13,162 nt of DNA, from IMG/VR virus record IMGVR_UViG_3300000292_000107; one strand, 5' to 3'. This DNA comes from a virus (Duplodnaviria > Heunggongvirae > Uroviricota > Caudoviricetes). Below, piece after piece: positions 1,094 to 9,423 of the stretch (the stretch's first letter is position 1; every line of letters begins with the position of its first letter). The notes below the pieces were generated by a model. That model was not told where the DNA came from. It did no database searches and saw only the letters and a list, made by a program, of their open reading frames with translations. The translations under genes and the position numbers were made by a program.

Positions 1094-1128
1094 AAGCCCG
1101 TGGCGTCACTGCTGCGGGCTTTTTTTAT
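1094..1128 (+). terminator. Rho-independent terminator downstream of lom
   Basis: AAGCCCG (1094-1100) pairs with CGGGCTT (1115-1121) around a 14-nt loop, followed by a run of seven Ts then ATT. Confidence 0.6.
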
Positions 1129-1140
1129 TGGTGGAAAAGT

Positions 1141-3516
1141 ATGACAGTAAAAATTTCTGGCGTGCTTAAAGATGGCACAGGAAAACCAGTACAGAACTGC
1201 ACCATTGTGCTGAAGGCCAGACGAACCAGCAGCACGGTGGTGGTGAACACGGTGGCCTCTGAAAATCCGGATGAAGCCGGACGTTACAGCATGGATGTTG
1301 AGCATGGTCAGTACAGCGTCACCCTGCTGGTTGAAGGTTTTCCGCCTTCACATGCCGGGACCATTACCGTCTATGAAGGTTCCAGACCAGGTACGCTGAA
1401 TGATTTTCTCGGTGCCATGACGGAAGATGATGTCATGCCGGAGGCATTGCGTCGTTTTGAGGCAATGGTGGAAGAAGCGGCACGCAACGCCGAAGCCGCC
1501 TCTCAGAGCGCAGCGGCGGCAAAGAAATCCGAAACTGCAGCGGCATCATCGAAGAACGCAGCGAAAACCTCAGAAACGAATGCAGCTAATAGTGCACAGG
1601 CGGCAGCGACCTCAAAGACTGCATCGGCAAACTACGCGACAGCAGCCAAAAAATCAGAAACCAACGCGAAAAATAGCGAGACAGCCGCAAAGACGAGCGA
1701 AACCAACGCAAAGTCCAGCCAGACGGCAGCGAAGACCAGCGAAACGAATGCTAAAGCCAGTGAAACTGCAGCAAAAAACAGCCAGGTTTCAGCAGCCCAA
1801 AGCGAGAGTGCCGCTGCCGGTTCTGCGACTTCAGCTGCCGGATCAGCAACTGCTGCGGCTAACAGCCAGAAAGCTGCGAAGACGAGTGAAACTAACGCAA
1901 AGTCCAGCCAGACGGCAGCGAAGACCAGCGAAACGAATGCCAAAGCCAGCGAAACTGCGGCGAAAAACAGTCAGGATGCAGCAGCCCAAAGCGAGAGTGC
2001 CGCAGCTGGTTCTGCAAGTGCGGCGGCTTCTTCTGCCACTGCATCAGCCAACAGTCAAAAAGCTGCAAAAACCAGTGAAACCAACGCAAAGGCGAGCGAG
2101 ACTGCGGCGGCTAACTCGGCGAAAGCATCCGCTGCAAGCCAGACAGCAGCTAAAGCAAGTGAGGATGCAGCCAGAGAGTATGCAAGCCAGGCTGCGGAGC
2201 CGTATAAACAAGTATTGCAGCCGCTTCCTGATGTGTGGATACCATTTAACGATTCACTGGATATGATTACGGGGTTTTCGCCGTCATATAAAAAGATTGT
2301 TATTGGTGATGATGAAATAACGATGCCTGGCGATAAGGTTGTAAAGTTTAAACGCGCATCGAAAGCAACCTATATTAATAAATCTGGTGTGCTGACAGAG
2401 GCTGCCATTGACGAGCCACGATTTGAACGTGATGGCCTGCTTATTGAGGGGCAAAGAACAAACTACATGCTCAATTCGGAAAGCCCTGCCAGTTGGGGGC
2501 GATCGTCAAATATGGATGTGCCCGAAACAGGGACGGATAATTTTGGTTTTACCTATGGAAAGTTTGTCTGCAACGATTCTCTGATTGGGCAAACCTCAGC
2601 CATTAATATGGCATCAATTGCTGCAACAAAGTCAGTTGATGTCTCAGGCGATAATAAACACGTGACAACCTCATGTCGTTTTAAAACAGAACTGCAGGTA
2701 AGGTTGCGTATCCGGTTTGATAAATATGACGGTAGCGCAACAACTTTTCTTGGTGATGCGTATATTGATACACAAACGCTTGAAATTAATATGACAGGCG
2801 GTGCTGCCTCAAGGATTACAGCGAGAGTCAGAAAGGACGAAGCTACCGGATGGATTTTTGCAGAGGCAACAATTCAGGCAATTGATGGGGAGTTAAAAAT
2901 AGGTTCTCAGATACAGTATTCTCCTAAGCAGGGCGGGGCAACCGTATCTGGTGACTATATTTATCTGGCCACCCCACAAGTAGAAAATGGGCCTTGTGTA
3001 TCATCTTTTATTATATCAGGAACGACGGCGGCGACCCGCGCAAGCGATATAGTTACAGTTCCCATTAAGAATAATCTTTATAATCTTCCTTTTACGGTTC
3101 TTTGTGAGGTACATAAGAACTGGTATAAAACGCCAAATGCAGCGCCGCGTGTTTTTGATACCGGCGGTCATCAAACCGGAGCGGCTATTATTCTTGGGTT
3201 CGGATCTGCGGCAGATGGGCCAGACGGATTTCCTTATTGCGATATTGGAGGAGCTAACAGACGGGTAAACGAAAACGCATCGCTTGAAAAAATGGTTATG
3301 GGGATGCGTGTAAAATCAGATCAGTCTACGTGCTCAGTAAGTAACGGGCGCATATCCAGCGAAAAAAAGACTACGTGGTCCTATATTCAGAACTCTGCAA
3401 CCATCCGTATTGGAGGCCAGACTACAGCAGGGTCACGTCATTTATTTGGTCATATCAGGAATTTCAGAATATGGCACAAGGCATTGACTGATGCTCAGGT
3501 GGGGGAGTCAATCTAA
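1141..3516 (+). CDS. stf: Side tail fibre protein (Stf-like) with lambda-like N-terminal anchor, Ala/Ser/Thr/Lys-rich repeat shaft and a divergent C-terminal LamG/ConA-like domain
   Basis: 791-aa ORF. The first ~110 aa (MTVKISGVLKDGTGKPVQNCTI...GRYSMDVEHGQYSV...FPPSHAGTITVYE) resemble the lambda Stf N-terminus as I recall it. The middle is built of KTSETNAK-type repeats. The C-terminus ends LFGHIRNFRIWHKALTDAQV, which looks like a laminin-G/ConA-like jelly-roll terminus. Position after lom matches lambda. Confidence 0.85.
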   Translation: MTVKISGVLKDGTGKPVQNCTIVLKARRTSSTVVVNTVASENPDEAGRYSMDVEHGQYSVTLLVEGFPPSHAGTITVYEGSRPGTLNDFLGAMTEDDVMPEALRRFEAMVEEAARNAEAASQSAAAAKKSETAAASSKNAAKTSETNAANSAQAAATSKTASANYATAAKKSETNAKNSETAAKTSETNAKSSQTAAKTSETNAKASETAAKNSQVSAAQSESAAAGSATSAAGSATAAANSQKAAKTSETNAKSSQTAAKTSETNAKASETAAKNSQDAAAQSESAAAGSASAAASSATASANSQKAAKTSETNAKASETAAANSAKASAASQTAAKASEDAAREYASQAAEPYKQVLQPLPDVWIPFNDSLDMITGFSPSYKKIVIGDDEITMPGDKVVKFKRASKATYINKSGVLTEAAIDEPRFERDGLLIEGQRTNYMLNSESPASWGRSSNMDVPETGTDNFGFTYGKFVCNDSLIGQTSAINMASIAATKSVDVSGDNKHVTTSCRFKTELQVRLRIRFDKYDGSATTFLGDAYIDTQTLEINMTGGAASRITARVRKDEATGWIFAEATIQAIDGELKIGSQIQYSPKQGGATVSGDYIYLATPQVENGPCVSSFIISGTTAATRASDIVTVPIKNNLYNLPFTVLCEVHKNWYKTPNAAPRVFDTGGHQTGAAIILGFGSAADGPDGFPYCDIGGANRRVNENASLEKMVMGMRVKSDQSTCSVSNGRISSEKKTTWSYIQNSATIRIGGQTTAGSRHLFGHIRNFRIWHKALTDAQVGESI
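1640..2110 (+). repeat. Nested in-frame tandem repeats inside stf: two full 189-bp units plus partial flanking copies, built from 24-27-bp sub-repeats
   Basis: Unit 1 at about 1691-1879 and unit 2 at about 1880-2068 are near-identical (anchors AAGTCCAGCCAGACGGCAGCGAAGACCAGCGAAACGAATGC at 1711 and 1900; GCAGCCCAAAGCGAGAGTGCCGC at 1792 and 1981). The period of 189 nt is 63 codons. Confidence 0.85.
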
Positions 3517-3797
3517 TGAAAGATTTAACACTCAAATTTGCCGACAGGGCCGACTTTTCGGCCTTTATGGAGAGTGCTGGCTATTATGATGACGAGTCGA
3601 TGCAGGATGATATTCTTATTGACGTGATAGGTAACGTGTACAAAGAAACCGGAGAACTTACTGAAGATGGCGAGCCGGTATGTGTTAAGGAAGACGGATA
3701 TTTTGTAAACGTGCGCATCATTAATGATGTGAAAACACCGTCAATATTCGATGAATACGTGGTTGCTGTTGAGCATCAACTTCGTGGCTGGATGTGA
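3516..3797 (+). CDS. Hypothetical acidic 93-aa protein, translationally coupled to stf
   Basis: Its ATG overlaps the stf stop (TAATG at 3514-3518). The ORF stops 9 nt before the next gene. I recognise no domain. Confidence 0.55.
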   Translation: MKDLTLKFADRADFSAFMESAGYYDDESMQDDILIDVIGNVYKETGELTEDGEPVCVKEDGYFVNVRIINDVKTPSIFDEYVVAVEHQLRGWM

Positions 3798-3806
3798 GGA
3801 AGAATA

Positions 3807-4847
3807 ATGGCTACATCGACAGTAATTCCTGATGACATCAAAACGCTAAAATCCGATGTTAGCAAATTAAAAAACGATCAAGGAAGCTACGTAACAAAAT
3901 CATATGTAGACAGCAAAAATGAAACCGTTAATGACTGGTCTGCTGCATGGTATCAGCAGGTACTGCCAACTAGCGGAGCTATATTTGGGCGAAAACTTCG
4001 CTCAACTCACAGGACGGCAGGTGTTGAGGATGCGTATTGCGAACTATACCTCAAAAAATGGATAGACAGTCCAGGTAACGCAATGGCGCGCCTTAACCTG
4101 AACGATAACGGGACAAACATTTGCTGGGACTTTACCAACCTTTATGGCGGTACGATGATTTTTCCCGGTGACAGCGGATACCTCAAAATGGGTAACTGCC
4201 TTATGTCATACAGCAAGCGTGGAAGTAACGCGCTTATTAAATTTGATTACACCGACACATTACAGATCAAATATGCCAATCATGGGTCAACCATGACATT
4301 AAACACACAGGGAACCGCTTATGCTGGTGTTACTGCTCAATTGTGGGGCAACTCCAGCCGTCCTGTTGTTTATGAAGTCGGTGTTGATGGTGGCGCTTAT
4401 ATGTTCTATGCGCAGAAAAATACCGATAACACCTATATGTTAAGCGTTAATGGTGCATGTCATGCCACCGCATTTAACCAGCATTCCGACCGGGATCTGA
4501 AAGACAACATTCAGGTGATCGATAATGCAACCGACCGCATCCGTAAAATGAACGGCTATACATACACGCTTAAAGAAAACGGTATGCCCTATGCTGGTGT
4601 CATTGCACAGGAAGCTCTGGAAGCAATCCCAGAAGTTGTAGGTTCCGCAATGAAATATCAGGACGGTGCAAGCGGATCGGAAGGTGAAGAAGGTGAACGT
4701 TATTACACAGTAGATTATTCTGGTGTTACTGGCTTGCTTGTTCAGGTAGCCAGAGAGTCAGACGACAGAATAACAGCACTGGAAGAAGAAAACGCAGAAT
4801 TAAGACAAAGATTATCTGCAATTGAGGCGGCGCTTGCGTCTAAATAA
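3807..4847 (+). CDS. Tail fibre/tailspike-like protein with C-terminal peptidase-S74 intramolecular chaperone domain
   Basis: 346-aa ORF with SD GAGGAAG upstream. The C-terminal ~120 aa begin SDRDLKDNI (Ser at codon 227, nt 4485-4487, with Lys five residues later), then NGYTYTLKENGMPYAGVIAQEALEAIPEVV...YYTVDYSGVTGLL and a terminal coiled-coil (ITALEEENAELRQRLSAIEAAL). This matches the autoproteolytic chaperone domain of endosialidase and T5 pb1-type fibres. Confidence 0.75.
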   Translation: MATSTVIPDDIKTLKSDVSKLKNDQGSYVTKSYVDSKNETVNDWSAAWYQQVLPTSGAIFGRKLRSTHRTAGVEDAYCELYLKKWIDSPGNAMARLNLNDNGTNICWDFTNLYGGTMIFPGDSGYLKMGNCLMSYSKRGSNALIKFDYTDTLQIKYANHGSTMTLNTQGTAYAGVTAQLWGNSSRPVVYEVGVDGGAYMFYAQKNTDNTYMLSVNGACHATAFNQHSDRDLKDNIQVIDNATDRIRKMNGYTYTLKENGMPYAGVIAQEALEAIPEVVGSAMKYQDGASGSEGEEGERYYTVDYSGVTGLLVQVARESDDRITALEEENAELRQRLSAIEAALASK

Positions 4848-4853
4848 TATCAA

Positions 4854-4876
4854 GGGGCCGAGCGCCCCGTTTTATT
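4854..4876 (+). terminator. Candidate rho-independent terminator ending the fibre operon
   Basis: GGGGC (4854-4858) pairs with GCCCC (4864-4868) around a 5-nt loop, followed by TTTT at 4870-4873. Confidence 0.5.
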
Positions 4877-4889
4877 GGGTAGGATGAAA

Positions 4890-5177
4890 ATGGATATAAC
4901 ACCTTTCCTTCATGCGCTTTGTGCTGTGGCTGCGCAGCTACTGATTGGTCTTTTTACCGGGAACTGGGCTTACGGGGCGATAGCCGGTTGTACGTTCTTC
5001 ATTGCGCGTGAACACACCCAGGCAGAATATCGCTGGATTGAAATGTTTGGGCATGGCAAGAGGATTAACATGCCGTGGTGGGGCGGTTTTGATCCGCGCG
5101 TGTGGGATGTGGCAAGCCTGATGGATTTTGCTGTGCCGGTGGTGGCGTGTCTGCTGATCTGGATGTTGATCCGTTAA
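4890..5177 (+). CDS. Small hydrophobic membrane protein of unknown function (prophage moron)
   Basis: The track ORF starts at a TTG (4875). In-frame ATGs lie at 4884 and 4890; AGGA at 4881-4884 is well spaced for 4890. The protein has two or three predicted hydrophobic helices (FLHALCAVAAQLLIGLF, AIAGCTFFIA, FAVPVVACLLIWMLI). Confidence 0.55.
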   Translation: MDITPFLHALCAVAAQLLIGLFTGNWAYGAIAGCTFFIAREHTQAEYRWIEMFGHGKRINMPWWGGFDPRVWDVASLMDFAVPVVACLLIWMLIR

Positions 5178-5180
5178 ATA

Positions 5181-5227
5181 TAAAAAGTAAAAAGCCGCAG
5201 TAACTTGTCATGATAGGATACTGCGGC
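5181..5227 (-). terminator. Candidate terminator for the dinI-like gene
   Basis: 9-bp stem GCCGCAGTA (5194-5202) / TACTGCGGC (5219-5227) around a 16-nt loop; on the minus strand it is followed by a T-rich run (complement of 5181-5193). The large loop is atypical. Confidence 0.4.
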
Positions 5228-5294
5228 TGGCTGGTTAACTTTCGATAGTGCGAGTATTGAATGATTTCCAGCCGTTACTGATTTTACGTGCTAA

Positions 5295-5543
5295 TTAGTG
5301 AACAAACCACTCGTCAGCAGACTCCCAGGTATCTTTCAGAGTTTCCTGAACAAAAGTTTTAGCTGAATCTTTATCGGCGGTGCGCGTAACAGAAAGGCCA
5401 TCGTTGCTGGTGGCTTTTACGATCACCTCTACATCGTCATAACGTTTACTGATGCGTCGGGTTAATTCTTCCTTTAACGCATCCACAGCACCGTTTGGCA
5501 TTTTAGTCATTTTTTCTTTGGCTATGCAGATCTCAATACGCAT
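5295..5543 (-). CDS. dinI: DinI-family protein (SOS-inducible RecA modulator homologue, prophage-encoded)
   Basis: 82-aa [12 protein letters not shown]...[13 protein letters not shown]...LSV...[16 protein letters not shown] shares the conserved blocks of E. coli DinI as I recall it. SD GAGGGA lies 6 nt upstream and two LexA boxes immediately upstream of that. Confidence 0.85.
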
Positions 5544-5556
5544 AAAAGTCCCTCTA

Positions 5557-5576
5557 TACTGTGTTTGTATACAGTA
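5557..5576 (-). promoter_or_regulatory. LexA box 1 (SOS operator) proximal to the dinI-like start
   Basis: TACTGTGTTTGTATACAGTA fits the CTGT-N8-ACAG consensus with AT-rich spacer; it lies 14 nt upstream of the dinI ATG. Confidence 0.8.
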
Positions 5577-5584
5577 TTATTTTT

Positions 5585-5604
5585 AACTGTATGGATAAAC
5601 AGTG
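5585..5604 (-). promoter_or_regulatory. LexA box 2, directly abutting the integrase stop codon
   Basis: AACTGTATGGATAAACAGTG fits CTGT-N8-ACAG. It is 28 bp centre-to-centre from box 1 and ends 1 nt before the int stop (5605-5607). Confidence 0.7.
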
Positions 5605-6702
5605 TCAAGAGGTCTTATTTCTGCTCCTTTGGAGCTCTTCAAAACGATTATGTAAAGATTTCGGATACAGTTCGGTATATACCTGCCATAGCACGTTTAA
5701 TGAACGATGCCCTGTAACCTGAGCGACTTCCTCAATACTAAAACCAGCCTCAAATAAGCGACTTGCCCCTTCTCTACGCAAATCATGGTATCGCAGATCT
5801 TTAATACCTAATTTGCTTCTTACCCTCTGAAATCCTGCAGTAACAGAAGTGCTGTTATATGGAAAAATGAATTCCGATTTTTTGGGCTGTCGTTGGACGA
5901 TATCCCAGGCTTCCCCAAGCAAGGCTACTTTCATGTGGTTGCCTTCCTTTTTGCGTGGATCTTTCCTGTCTCTTACGAGTATAGATTTTTGTTCCTGGTC
6001 GAGATCTTCCCATCGTAACCGGCATACTTCTCCGATCCGCATACAGGACCACACAGAAAATTTGAGGATATCAACGAACGGAATTTTTGAGCATTTATGA
6101 GTAGATCGTTGTTGAAGGCCTTCAATGAGCATGTCCAGTTCATCAGATGCTGGTCTACGATTCCGACGGTTTGATTTACCAATCAAACCAAGTTTAAGTA
6201 GATATGGGCGAGCGCTTTTCGCCGGGTTTGATGTGTAATTAATTCCGTATACAGGTTTGGCCGCATCCAGAACACTGCCAAGATAACTAACATCGTGGCT
6301 GACTGTTGCTGGACCTGCACCAGCGTTGTTTCTTAGCCTGCAATGTTCAATTACGTCATTTTCTGTCAGTTCAGATAGTTTGATCGCGGAGATGTCACTA
6401 TCCATAAGCAGTTCCAGCACATATCTTTTAGTACGGCCTGCTTTACCTCCGGCATTTGGGTCATTTAAATATTTGTGTAGTAAGTCACGGACTGTAAGTC
6501 CGTCAACTGGATTTGATGATGGAATGCCATATAGATCTAATTCCATCACTTTCTGTGTTCCCCATGTTTTGGCATGAGCATGTTTAGGGAATGTTTTGCT
6601 TTCCCTGTAAGTGATAACACCTTTTTCTTTGATAATCACATTACAGCGATAGCGTGGTGTGCCATCGGATTTTAGTCGTTTCTCTATGTTATAGTACGCC
6701 AT
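5605..6702 (-). CDS. int: Tyrosine recombinase / phage integrase (dusA-associated integrase type)
   Basis: 365-aa ORF with tyrosine-recombinase catalytic signatures in the C-terminal half (R in CMRIGEVCRLRWEDL; YHDLRREGAS box; GHRSLNVLWQVY with the catalytic Tyr). SD GAGG upstream. It lies divergent to, and 88 bp from, the dusA start. Confidence 0.9.
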   Translation of the reverse strand: MAYYNIEKRLKSDGTPRYRCNVIIKEKGVITYRESKTFPKHAHAKTWGTQKVMELDLYGIPSSNPVDGLTVRDLLHKYLNDPNAGGKAGRTKRYVLELLMDSDISAIKLSELTENDVIEHCRLRNNAGAGPATVSHDVSYLGSVLDAAKPVYGINYTSNPAKSARPYLLKLGLIGKSNRRNRRPASDELDMLIEGLQQRSTHKCSKIPFVDILKFSVWSCMRIGEVCRLRWEDLDQEQKSILVRDRKDPRKKEGNHMKVALLGEAWDIVQRQPKKSEFIFPYNSTSVTAGFQRVRSKLGIKDLRYHDLRREGASRLFEAGFSIEEVAQVTGHRSLNVLWQVYTELYPKSLHNRFEELQRSRNKTS

Positions 6703-6721
6703 TACACGACCTCGTTATTTC

Positions 6722-6757
6722 GGGTTCCCATAAAACGTGGGAACCTGTGCGGGAACC
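6722..6757. promoter_or_regulatory. Inverted plus direct repeat in the int-dusA intergenic region; candidate integrase or regulator binding site
   Basis: GGTTCCCA (6723-6730) and its inverted copy TGGGAACC (6738-6745) flank a 7-nt spacer, and GGGAACC recurs at 6751-6757. It lies 20-55 bp upstream of the int ATG and has no flanking T-run, so it is not a terminator. Confidence 0.4.
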
Positions 6758-6790
6758 TAACGCGAGAAAAATAGCCTGAAATGTTCAAAA

Positions 6791-7828
6791 ATGCACGATA
6801 ATCATGAAACACAAAAAATTAATCAAACCAGCGTGATGCCTGAAAAAACTGGTGTTTACTGGAATTCTCGGTTTAGCATTGCTCCTATGCTTGACTGGAC
6901 GGACAGACATTGCCGTTATTTCTTGCGTCTGCTTTCCCGCAATACGTTGCTGTATACCGAAATGGTGACCACAGGGGCGATTATTCACGGTAAAGGTGAT
7001 TACCTGGCGTACAGTGAAGAAGAACATCCGGTAGCGTTGCAACTCGGGGGTAGCGATCCGGCGGCGCTGGCACAGTGTGCGAAGCTGGCAGAAGCGCGTG
7101 GATACGATGAGATCAACCTGAATGTCGGCTGCCCGTCTGACCGGGTGCAGAACGGCATGTTTGGTGCGTGTCTGATGGGTAATGCGCAGCTGGTTGCCGA
7201 CTGCGTGAAAGCGATGCGCGATGTGGTGTCGATTCCGGTGACGGTGAAAACGCGTATTGGCATCGATGATCAGGACAGCTATGAATTTCTCTGCGATTTC
7301 ATCAACACCGTTTCCGGCAAAGGTGAGTGTGAGATGTTCATCATCCACGCACGTAAAGCCTGGCTTTCTGGGTTAAGTCCGAAAGAAAACCGTGAGATCC
7401 CGCCTCTCGATTATCCGCGTGTGTATCAACTGAAGCGTGACTTTCCGCATCTGACGATGTCGATTAACGGTGGTATCAAGTCGCTGGAAGAAGCTAAAGC
7501 GCATTTGCAACATATGGATGGCGTGATGGTCGGGCGCGAGGCGTATCAGAATCCGGGGATTCTGGCGGCGGTAGACCGAGAGATTTTTGGTTCCTCGGAT
7601 ACCGATGCCGATCCGGTGGCGGTAGTGCGCGCCATGTATCCGTACATTGAGCGTGAACTCAGCCAGGGTACGTATCTCGGCCATATTACCCGGCATATGC
7701 TGGGCTTGTTCCAGGGTATTCCTGGCGCGCGGCAGTGGCGGCGTTATTTAAGTGAAAATGCCCATAAAGCGGGTGCAGACATTAATGTGCTGGAACACGC
7801 GCTCAAACTGGTAGCGGATAAGCGTTAA
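6791..7828 (+). CDS. dusA: tRNA-dihydrouridine synthase A
   Basis: 345-aa ORF with the Dus-family FMN-binding core ([32 protein letters not shown]) as recalled for enterobacterial DusA. No clear SD at 6791; an in-frame ATG at 6836 (MPEKT...) is an alternative start. Confidence 0.9.
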
Positions 7829-7864
7829 CTTTTCACCAAAAAGTAGTCAAATTCACCACGCCCT

Positions 7865-7886
7865 GCGCCCCGTCGCGGGGCGTTTT
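7865..7886 (+). terminator. Rho-independent terminator downstream of dusA
   Basis: CGCCCCG (7866-7872) pairs with CGGGGCG (7876-7882) around a 3-nt loop, followed by TTTT at 7883-7886. Confidence 0.55.
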
Positions 7887-7910
7887 GCTGTTAAATCAAT
7901 AGATTATTTT

Positions 7911-7926
7911 TGGCATGATTCTTGTA
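7911..7926 (+). promoter_or_regulatory. Candidate sigma54 (-24/-12) promoter of pspG
   Basis: TGGCATGATTCTTGTA resembles the TGGCAC-N5-TTGC consensus: the GG is correctly spaced from the -12 element, but -12 reads GT rather than GC. About 36 nt upstream of the pspG ATG. pspG is a known PspF/sigma54-dependent gene. Confidence 0.5.
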
Positions 7927-7961
7927 ATGCCAGCAAGAGATTTCATATTTGGGAGAGCATC

Positions 7962-8204
7962 ATGCTGGAACTACTTTTTGTAATTGGCTTTTTTGTCATG
8001 CTGATGGTCACCGGTGTTTCGTTGCTGGGTATTATCGCCGCGCTGATTGTGGCGACGGCCTTTATGTTCCTCGGCGGTATGCTGGCATTGATGATTAAGT
8101 TGCTGCCGTGGCTGCTGTTGGCGGTTGCGGTGGTGTGGGTGATCAGGGCGATAAAAGCACCAAAAGTGCCGAAATATCAGCGTTATGACCGCTGGCGTTA
8201 CTAA
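7962..8204 (+). CDS. pspG: Phage shock protein G (small inner-membrane protein)
   Basis: 80-aa hydrophobic ORF ending KAPKVPKYQRYDRWRY, with SD GGGAGAG upstream, lying between dusA and qor as in E. coli. Confidence 0.85.
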   Translation: MLELLFVIGFFVMLMVTGVSLLGIIAALIVATAFMFLGGMLALMIKLLPWLLLAVAVVWVIRAIKAPKVPKYQRYDRWRY

Positions 8205-8339
8205 GGGATTGTGCGGATGATCACAACCTAAGGTTTTATCCTTAGAACAAAATAGGAATTGATAATCAAATCTGTCACTATTGCGCGTCAAACAAATTCA
8301 TCGAGCTGTACCCTACATACAGCCGAACTATAAAAGAAA

Positions 8340-8370
8340 GGGCTTCCCAGGTGGAAGCCCAATTTCTTTT
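8340..8370. terminator. Bidirectional rho-independent terminator between convergent pspG and qor
   Basis: GGGCTTCC (8340-8347) pairs with GGAAGCCC (8353-8360) around a 5-nt loop, with an A-rich run upstream and a T-rich run (AATTTCTTTT) downstream, so a U-tract follows the hairpin on either strand. Confidence 0.6.
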
Positions 8371-9423
8371 ATGGAATCAATAGGCTGGAACCCTGCGTCG
8401 CCCGGCTTTCCAGAATCTCATGCGCACGCCGCGCATCCTTCAGCGGATATTTCTGCTGCTCGGCGACATCGACCTTAATCACACCGCTGGCAATCAAAGA
8501 GAACAGTTCATTACTGGCCTCGGTTAATTCCTCCCGCGTGGTGATATAGCCTTGCAGGGAAGGGCGTGTCACATACAACGAGCCTTTCTGATTGAGAATG
8601 CCTAAGTTCACACCGGTAACCGCACCTGATGAGTTGCCAAAACTCACCATTAAGCCGCGGCGTTGCAGGCAATCCAGCGACCGTTCCCAGGTGTCTCTGC
8701 CCACTGAATCGTACACCACGCGCACTTTCTTACCACCGGTGATCTCTTTCAATCGCTCGACCAGATTCTCTTCACGATAGTTAATAACCTGCCACGCGCC
8801 CGCTTTTAGCGCACTCTGCGCTTTTTGCGNNNNNNNNNNNNNNNNNNNNNNNNNNNNNNNNNNNNNNNNNNNNNNNNNNNNNNNNNNNNNNNNNNNNNNN
8901 NNNNNNNNNNNNNGCCGATAAGTTTCGCGCCCAGGGCTTTTGCCCACTGGCAGGCAATCAAGCCAACGCCGCCAGCCGCTGCGTGGAACAGGAACTGTTC
9001 ATCGGGTTTAATTTCATAGGTTTTGCGCAGCAGATAATAAACCGTTAAGCCTTTCAGGAAGGATGCCGCAGCTTGCTCAAAAGAAATTGCCGCAGGCAGA
9101 ATCGCCGCTTTATCTGCATTAATGTTATGCACAGAGCTGTAAGCGCCTAATGCCGATTGTGCATAGACTACGCGATCGCCTGCCTTAATATGCTTTACAC
9201 CACTGCCGACTTTACTCACGATGCCTGCCGCTTCGGTACCTAATCCGCTGGGTAGCGATGGCGGCGGGTAAAGGCCGCTGCGGATATACGTGTCGATAAA
9301 ATTGATGCCGATGGCTTTATTTTCGACCTGGATTTCATTCTCCGCCGGATCGGCAGGAGTGAACTCTACGGCTTGAAGTACTTCCGGGCCACCGTGCTTG
9401 TGAAATTCAATTCGTATTGCCAT
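8369..9423 (-). CDS. qorA: NADPH:quinone oxidoreductase (zeta-crystallin family), interrupted by an 84-N run at 8830-8913
   Basis: The two minus-strand track ORFs (8806..9423 and 8369..8947) are the N- and C-terminal parts of one Qor-like protein (GAGGVG nucleotide-binding motif; C-terminus ...ESRATQGSSLLIP). SD AAGGAG lies upstream of the ATG at 9423. The parts are in different frames across the N run. Confidence 0.8.

Follow-up and report, generated by a model that had tools for sequence, protein, structure and literature searches.

Where the prophage ends and the bacterial chromosome begins is the question raised by a pair of divergent genes in a 13,162-nucleotide (nt) stretch of DNA, hereafter the window, deposited as IMG/VR virus record IMGVR_UViG_3300000292_000107. 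The pair consists of an integrase gene, int (5605-6702, minus strand), and the tRNA-modification gene dusA (6791-7828, plus strand), with Pfam matches to Phage_integrase (E 1e-20) and Dus (E 8e-105), respectively. Their starts at 6702 and 6791 are separated by a gap of 88 base pairs (bp; 6703-6790), as read from the open reading frame (ORF) list and the sequence and as an earlier note on this DNA had claimed. That note also described the first ~130 nt of dusA as AT-rich and proposed that the first 20-50 codons originate from a phage inserted inside the gene. The AT-rich 5' end is real, yet its length is 104 nt, with a GC content of 37.5% in 6791-6894 compared to 53.7% in 6895-7828, and every 104-nt segment of the rest of the gene has a GC content of at least 45.2%. 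Compared with dusA of Escherichia coli K-12, the first 104 nt contain 19 mismatches (81.7% identity) and the remaining 934 nt contain 28 (97.0% identity), while homology to K-12 ends leftward at about 6783. The window represents E. coli chromosome, and positions 5500-8300 are 100% identical to strain VTB96815v, while identity amounts to 98.1% in the phage part as a whole (1114-8829) and to 99.95% in the host flank. This strain was used as a surrogate for reading the far prophage end, which lies outside the window. The junction of int and dusA is found in 734 of 5426 complete E. coli genomes, and int adjoins the dusA 5' end in five other species-representative loci as well. The genes on the int side of the junction are the following:

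1141-4847, plus strand: tail-fibre genes, comprising a Stf-like gene (1141-3516), a small ORF (3516-3797) and a gene encoding a tail-fibre domain protein (3807-4847)
5295-5543, minus strand: dinI-like gene located 3' of int (Pfam DinI, E 1e-19)
5605-6702, minus strand: int, encoding a tyrosine recombinase of 365 amino acids of the dusA-associated integrase (DAI) family (Pfam PF00589, residues 189-346)

The boundary was located by a four-way comparison of the window junction, the attP that phage mEp460 has in its virion genome, the VTB96815v far junction and attB of K-12, which divides the region as follows:

6703-6894, plus strand: phage arm, formed by the int-dusA spacer and a dusA' cassette and collinear with mEp460 attP up to the core
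6878-6904, plus strand: imperfect att repeat of 27 bp, 21/27 positions being identical between the two junctions in the four-way alignment
6887-6894, plus strand: 8-bp core ATGCTTGA, the crossover region and prophage/host boundary, encoding DusA Met33-Leu34-Asp35
6895-7828, plus strand: host-derived rest of dusA

The core is the sole stretch identical in both junctions, as the sequence to its left follows the phage and the sequence to its right follows the host, and it falls inside the interval of roughly 6800-6950 where it had been predicted. The coding part of the cassette (6791-6894) corresponds to dusA codons 1-34 and two nt of codon 35. In mEp460 and K-12 the core reads ATGCTCGA, position 6892 being T in the window and C in both of these. 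In addition, a 19-nt attB segment of C. rodentium (PMC6328086) aligns to 6881-6899 with identity at 17/19 positions.

The origin of each arm can be followed in the individual sequences. In the packaged genome of mEp460, int is located mid-genome and followed by the spacer and dusA-like 5' end of the window, ...CCTATGCTCGA, which runs on as TAGGATGTACCG... into phage DNA and not into dusA. Since the cassette is present beside int in a virion genome, the suggestion that the first 20-50 DusA codons are phage-derived holds and can be narrowed to 32-35 codons. The attP sites of phages EKP1 and YeP1 carry a dusA' cassette as well. At the far junction of VTB96815v, which adjoins zur, a different dusA 5' end leads into ATGCTTGA and then into the TAGGATGTACCG... 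phage arm as in mEp460. A direct repeat of a dusA segment had been expected at the other prophage end, and it is seen there as the 27-bp imperfect repeat with its perfect 8-bp core. Read directly, the displaced dusA 5' end is a native-type allele unlike that of K-12, and a search of this junction for the K-12 dusA 5' sequence, allowing up to 3 mismatches, found none. In phage Lys8385Vzw (MT225100.1, 4088-4104), the core occurs twice in tandem, ATGCTCGAATGCTCGA, a probable artefact that arose when a prophage sequence retaining both junction copies was circularised.

When the host arms of the far junction and the window junction were joined in silico, they gave a reconstructed empty site of 574 nt, which is present uninterrupted and with 100.0% identity in E. 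coli ATCC 11775, including the first 286 nt of the host arm from 6895 (100% identity). The same site is covered to at least 80% in one piece in 1043 genomes. Together, the match to an empty site and the four-way pattern lead to the conclusion that phage DNA makes up the 34 codons, the leader and the 88-bp spacer. At first look, the K-12 dusA 5' end, being of equal length and 82% identical, suggests two host alleles, so that the AT-rich 5' end could stem from allelic variation or gene conversion of dusA, with the prophage lying upstream of an intact host gene. However, the exact 5' sequence occurs beside int in virion genomes and continues into phage DNA, the native 5' end is displaced to the other prophage end in VTB96815v, and the reconstructed empty site exists at 100% identity, which refutes this explanation and leaves it a vanishingly small probability. 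Likewise, when the dusA 5' region was compared with unoccupied alleles and a duplicated core was sought at the far end, the pattern that would contradict a junction inside the gene, an identical 5' end and no duplicated core, was absent.

Within the 27-bp repeat, strand exchange may have taken place a few bases off ATGCTTGA, for instance with an overlap of 7 bp that is shifted by 1-2 nt. Comparing sequences narrows the exchange down no further than the stretch of identity, a core of 7 bases has been published for the Stx2d phage 1720a-02 (PMC6328086), and position 6892 is polymorphic. Yet positions 6886 and 6895 differ between the junctions, so the switch of partners lies within 6887-6894 for this event, and an offset exchange is regarded as possible but rather unlikely. 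Exchange within the 8-bp core is thus retained as the preferred reading below.

The integrase itself had been assigned by the earlier note to the class that inserts into dusA's 5' end, and its relatedness agrees with this, as 359/365 residues (98%) are identical to Int of mEp460. This phage is named among the phage hits by Farrugia et al. 2015 (PMC4482086), who defined the DAIs, found Escherichia to be an over-represented genus, and described a replacement 5' end, ~21-bp semi-conserved repeats and a PrtN homologue in 60/94 islands. No clustering with an integrase family of another target site was seen. The PF00589 match covers profile positions 8-169 of 172, and inspection of the sequence revealed R222, H306-x-x-R309, H332 and Y342, i.e., the RHRH tetrad and the nucleophilic Tyr of a tyrosine recombinase. 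Other DAI traits are also found: int lies beside the dusA 5' end, a replacement 5' end is supplied with the original at the far junction, the 27-bp repeat (its far end taken from VTB96815v) corresponds to the ~21-bp semi-conserved repeats, and a PrtN/RdfN homologue (PF11112, E 3e-23) is encoded ~1.5 kb from the far junction of VTB96815v, outside the window. For excision as a circle that restores dusA, the indications are indirect: a joined attP in packaged genomes, the exact empty site in other strains and the experiments published on phage 1720a-02. Using a 68%-identical relative as query, tblastn identified 210 phage records in phages of Pseudomonas, Vibrio, Ralstonia, Burkholderia and Acinetobacter. 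NCBIfam contains no specific model matching Int, giving only sub-threshold matches to Xer and integron models, and a PDB search gave only remote matches to XerA. Finally, Pfam detected no arm-binding domain in residues 1-180, where a weak Int_N match (E 0.026) was obtained.

Phage lambda has its attP past the 3' end of int, keeps int and xis adjacent at the prophage end opposite the tail genes, and integrates between genes and not inside one. The prophage in VTB96815v displays a different arrangement: from the far junction, the order is cargo (including a Panacea-domain gene), rdfN, exo, repressor region, Q, lysis, terminase, head, tail, tail fibres, dinI, int, the junction and dusA. From this order it follows that attP is positioned between the 5' end of int and rdfN. 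The tail-fibre genes at 1141-4847 are the late-operon end of the prophage; the region has Pfam matches to phage_tail_N (E 1e-67) and Peptidase_S74 (E 5e-14) and is also annotated as tail fibre in VTB96815v. Annotation thus bears out the earlier observation that int and the tail-fibre genes sit at the same prophage end, unlike lambda, an arrangement already published for 1720a-02. What is shared with lambda, judging from the attP comparison, is a tyrosine recombinase, a short core, a separate directionality factor, and an attP of ~235 bp with repeated sites on both arms. Here, however, attP is found on the 5' side of int, with the gene for the recombination directionality factor (RDF) beyond it, which places int beside the tail-fibre genes, and the module therefore differs from the canonical lambda type in attP position, in having the RDF across attP and in the neighbours of int. 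The slot between attP and rdfN carries variable cargo (VTB96815v 23056-24257, locus L004 4243-5146 and Lys8385Vzw 4358-5559), consisting of a SocA/Panacea-domain antitoxin-like gene and small ORFs in VTB96815v and Lys8385Vzw and of unrelated ORFs in mEp460. The dinI-like gene adjoins int in mEp460, Lys8385Vzw and EKP1, too.

The comparisons demonstrate the junction position, the origin of each arm, the family membership and the gene order, and the window almost certainly contains the int-proximal junction of an mEp460/1720a-02-type lambdoid prophage, site-specifically integrated at dusA codons 33-35. In this model, attP lies just upstream of int and includes a cassette resembling a copy of the dusA 5' end. 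The cassette comprises a probable promoter element and a 5' leader, together with a start codon and 34 codons whose last residues read ...APMLD, and in attP this int-side arm would be joined to TAGGATGTACC. The DAI tyrosine recombinase exchanges strands within the core ATGCT(C/T)GA common to attP and dusA, and integration strands the host dusA promoter and 5' end at the far prophage end. As the cassette becomes fused in frame to the remainder of dusA, the gene stays intact, and because attP lies between int and the gene of the PrtN-like directionality factor RdfN, the two are split by integration: one prophage end then carries int, adjoining the tail-fibre genes, and the opposite end carries rdfN.

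While the junction is genuine in origin, the element could by now be a fixed remnant that no longer excises, its site having ceased to function as an att site. The window includes one end only, decay is common among 80 Enterobacteriaceae dusA loci, as exemplified by an int pseudogene (L054) and a 20-codon int stub (L066), and several loci devoid of int keep a phage-type dusA 5' end. Yet int of the window is a full-length ORF with its catalytic residues, the VTB96815v prophage has complete head, tail, lysis, replication, repressor and rdfN genes, and mEp460, PhiR40_1 and 1720a-02, all of them near-identical phages, were obtained as particles or by induction, making a remnant improbable.

Ten phage records cover at least 80% of a query spanning dinI, int and dusA' (5300-6900), and the corresponding region of phage 1720a-02 (KF030445) is 97.3% identical to the window. 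In experiments on 1720a-02, Balasubramanian et al. (PMC6328086) showed that this phage inserts at 100 bp within dusA, that its 7-base core is part of the 21-bp motif, that it carries an in-frame phage dusA' and that deletion of its int abolishes attP formation, and they remarked that its int position is noncanonical. Like the window, mEp460 and 1720a-02 are lambdoid and use dusA, their int-dusA' DNA being 97-98% identical, and they share the order dinI-int-attP-cargo-prtN/rdfN, the dusA' cassette and the core. Only strain-level differences separate them from the window, such as core ATGCTCGA compared to ATGCTTGA, and 1720a-02 is an Stx2d phage, whereas the window is without stx; dusA is named among the known insertion sites of Stx phages. 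A similar agreement is seen with the dusA islands and prophages described elsewhere (PMC4482086, PMC8409611). These encode a tyrosine recombinase in divergent orientation to dusA, insert into the 5' part of the gene, provide that end anew along with a promoter, carry semi-conserved direct repeats of ~21 bp and have a PrtN-like RDF across attP, with no difference in kind. For such elements, Rivard et al. 2021 (PMC8409611) proved RdfN, a homologue of PrtN, to be the directionality factor; they also showed that an integrated dusA element brings with it a promoter and a new N-terminus. As the literature on DAIs, 1720a-02 and RdfN covers it, the interpretation of the dusA junction is correct but already known and well described for near-identical phages.

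In icd, phage 21 and e14 replace the 3' end of the gene. SXT, which inserts in prfC, replaces the gene 5' end (PMC8409611). As in the window, these elements carry a surrogate gene end and the target stays functional, although their integrases and targets are unrelated to those of the window and, in icd, it is the 3' end that is replaced. Insertion of a phage into a housekeeping gene with repair of that gene is established biology. For annotation, the prophage boundary belongs at 6887-6894 within dusA and not in the int-dusA gap, and the first 34 DusA codons and the putative promoter are phage DNA in such lysogens, which make up ~14% of complete E. coli genomes. Any added value may lie in the repeated 7-mers of attP and in the 5' end of K-12 dusA, both considered below together with the putative promoter.

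The cassette seems to bring its own promoter, the candidate being the following element:

6687-6695, plus strand: TGTTATAGT, candidate extended -10 element of the dusA promoter that the phage would supply; int codons 3-6 overlap with it on the opposite strand

A TGCTATAGTAGCGCCCC-like element is found upstream of dusA in 79/80 Enterobacteriaceae loci, and the native elements are located some 105-109 nt ahead of the Asp35 codon. The element is highly conserved and, for the majority of the 80 species (loci L006-L085), is found ~40 nt upstream of native dusA. The phage cassette retains TG[T/C]TATA[G/A]T at 6687-6695, and by its conservation and position the putative TGTTATAGT element may drive dusA as an extended -10 promoter. 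In the phage, the near-copy of the TGCTATAGTAGCGCCCC-like element (6687-6702) overlaps, on the other strand, with the codons for MAYYNI at the int start. However, a scan of 6550-6950 for two-hexamer sigma-70 promoters and terminators gave no sites. Rfam, at the gathering threshold, gave no family in 5200-8400.

Upstream of the cassette start codon, the int-side arm also contains a repeated 7-mer:

6722-6757, strand not assigned: three copies of GGGAACC, putative P-arm Int sites, one inverted (6723-6729) and two direct (6739-6745 and 6751-6757)

GGGAACC is present in five copies in the window, three of them within 35 bp, compared to 1.18 expected in the whole 13 kb. Scanning IMG/VR with Int of the window yielded hardly anything but E. 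coli prophages with Int at least 98% identical, which are uninformative for covariation, and diverse attP sites were obtained from a second scan with a 70% relative and from a search of a phage collection. The attP sites or int-side junctions compared belong to relatives with an Int identity of 55-97%, and their layout is constant. It begins with the int start, ~25 nt, an inverted 7-mer, 8 AT-rich nt, a 7-mer, 5 nt and another 7-mer; a GAGAAAGCAAAAATA-like stretch follows the third 7-mer and precedes AAAATGCAC, which holds the start codon of the cassette; and it ends with ~100 nt of cassette, the core, ~43 nt, a 7-mer, TATT and a 7-mer. The 7-mer itself differs between phages, being GGGAACC in the window and mEp460, whereas EKP1 and its relatives have GGTGTAC, Yersinia phage YeP1 has GGGGTGC and locus L240 has GGTGTCC, the last known from three int-side copies only. 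In mEp460, EKP1 and YeP1, for which the full attP is available, the 7-mer is alike at all five positions, except for one variant in mEp460 (GGGAGCC). The copies were located at 4132-4156 in L004 and, on the minus strand, at about 645-662 and 845-880 in EKP1 (L246), with the same layout in L247. Because sites on both arms change together with the phage, as arm-type Int sites would, the five co-varying 7-mers are likely arm-type sites of Int, although RdfN or a repressor is an alternative candidate for the binding protein. If they are Int arm sites, these phages would offer a ready system for swapping specificity. In a limited search of the dusA-element literature, no description of the co-varying 7-mers or of the promoter-like element over the int start was found.

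The resemblance between the cassette and K-12 dusA deserves separate attention. Comparing the dusA N-termini of 80 species-representative Enterobacteriaceae loci revealed a short native DusA N-terminus (M..ES...PA(H/Y)RFSIAPMLD) in at least 66/80, and the short native 5' end beside zur is found in the closest Escherichia relatives and in ATCC 11775-type E. coli. All five int-adjacent loci among the 80 encode a long N-terminal extension starting MH or MQ, as is also present in the window. K-12 dusA has such a long extension, MHGN, beginning MHGNSEMQKINQTSA..., its 5' end is 82-83% identical to the phage cassette but shares only 62% identity with the short native allele, and its distance of 194 nt from the -10-like element is of the phage type (NC_000913.3 locus L001, 6578-6773, the counterpart of 6687-6894 in the window). 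Furthermore, the loci form a decay series from an intact int through an int pseudogene (L054) and a 20-codon stub (L066) to none. Taken together, extension, identity, spacing and decay series make the K-12 dusA upstream region and first 35 codons look like the fossil of an ancient dusA phage. The K-12-type dusA 5' region is found in 4274/5426 genomes (~79% of E. coli).

No displaced native dusA 5' fragment was found beside zur in K-12, and tblastn detected no int remnant at the K-12 dusA locus; therefore, the fossil reading rests on the cassette itself. The K-12 sequence TATGGTATAGTAC was considered as a remnant of the int start and rejected, as the element is also located upstream of native dusA in phage-free species. 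It could be speculated that the dusA' cassette is a combined attP-arm and promoter module, comprising the -10 copy and the five 7-mers, that may outlive its phage, with the K-12 N-terminus as its fossil, a view we moderately favour; three of the five putative Int-site 7-mers would lie within the dusA leader. Rivard et al. 2021 (PMC8409611) treated the K-12 DusA N-terminus as native, and a limited search found no paper stating a fossil origin of the K-12 dusA 5' end. If the fossil reading is true, experiments on K-12 dusA expression or on the DusA N-terminus study a domesticated phage cassette.

A few observations concern individual records. The record of 'Elizabethkingia phage EKP1' (OM284015.1) encodes an Int 99.7% identical to that of an IMG/VR contig (L167) belonging to the enterobacterial Int group, and its cassette is an enterobacterial-type dusA' (…RFSIAPMLD); because of both, its stated Bacteroidota host looks doubtful. 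The window itself contains two runs of N, one of 10 (831-840) within a lom-like ORF and one of 84 (8830-8913), representing assembly or masking gaps. An apparent frameshift in qorA was rejected as an artefact, as the second run replaces 13 bp and thereby creates the apparent ORFs 8369-8947 and 8806-9423. Finally, the tail-fibre gene contains 189-nt and 42-nt tandem repeats (1657-2171) encoding an Ala/Ser/Thr-rich repeat of the (K)TSETNAK type, which account for the strong AT skew (0.5-0.7) at 1500-2100 and for a long alternative-frame ORF at 1427-2266.
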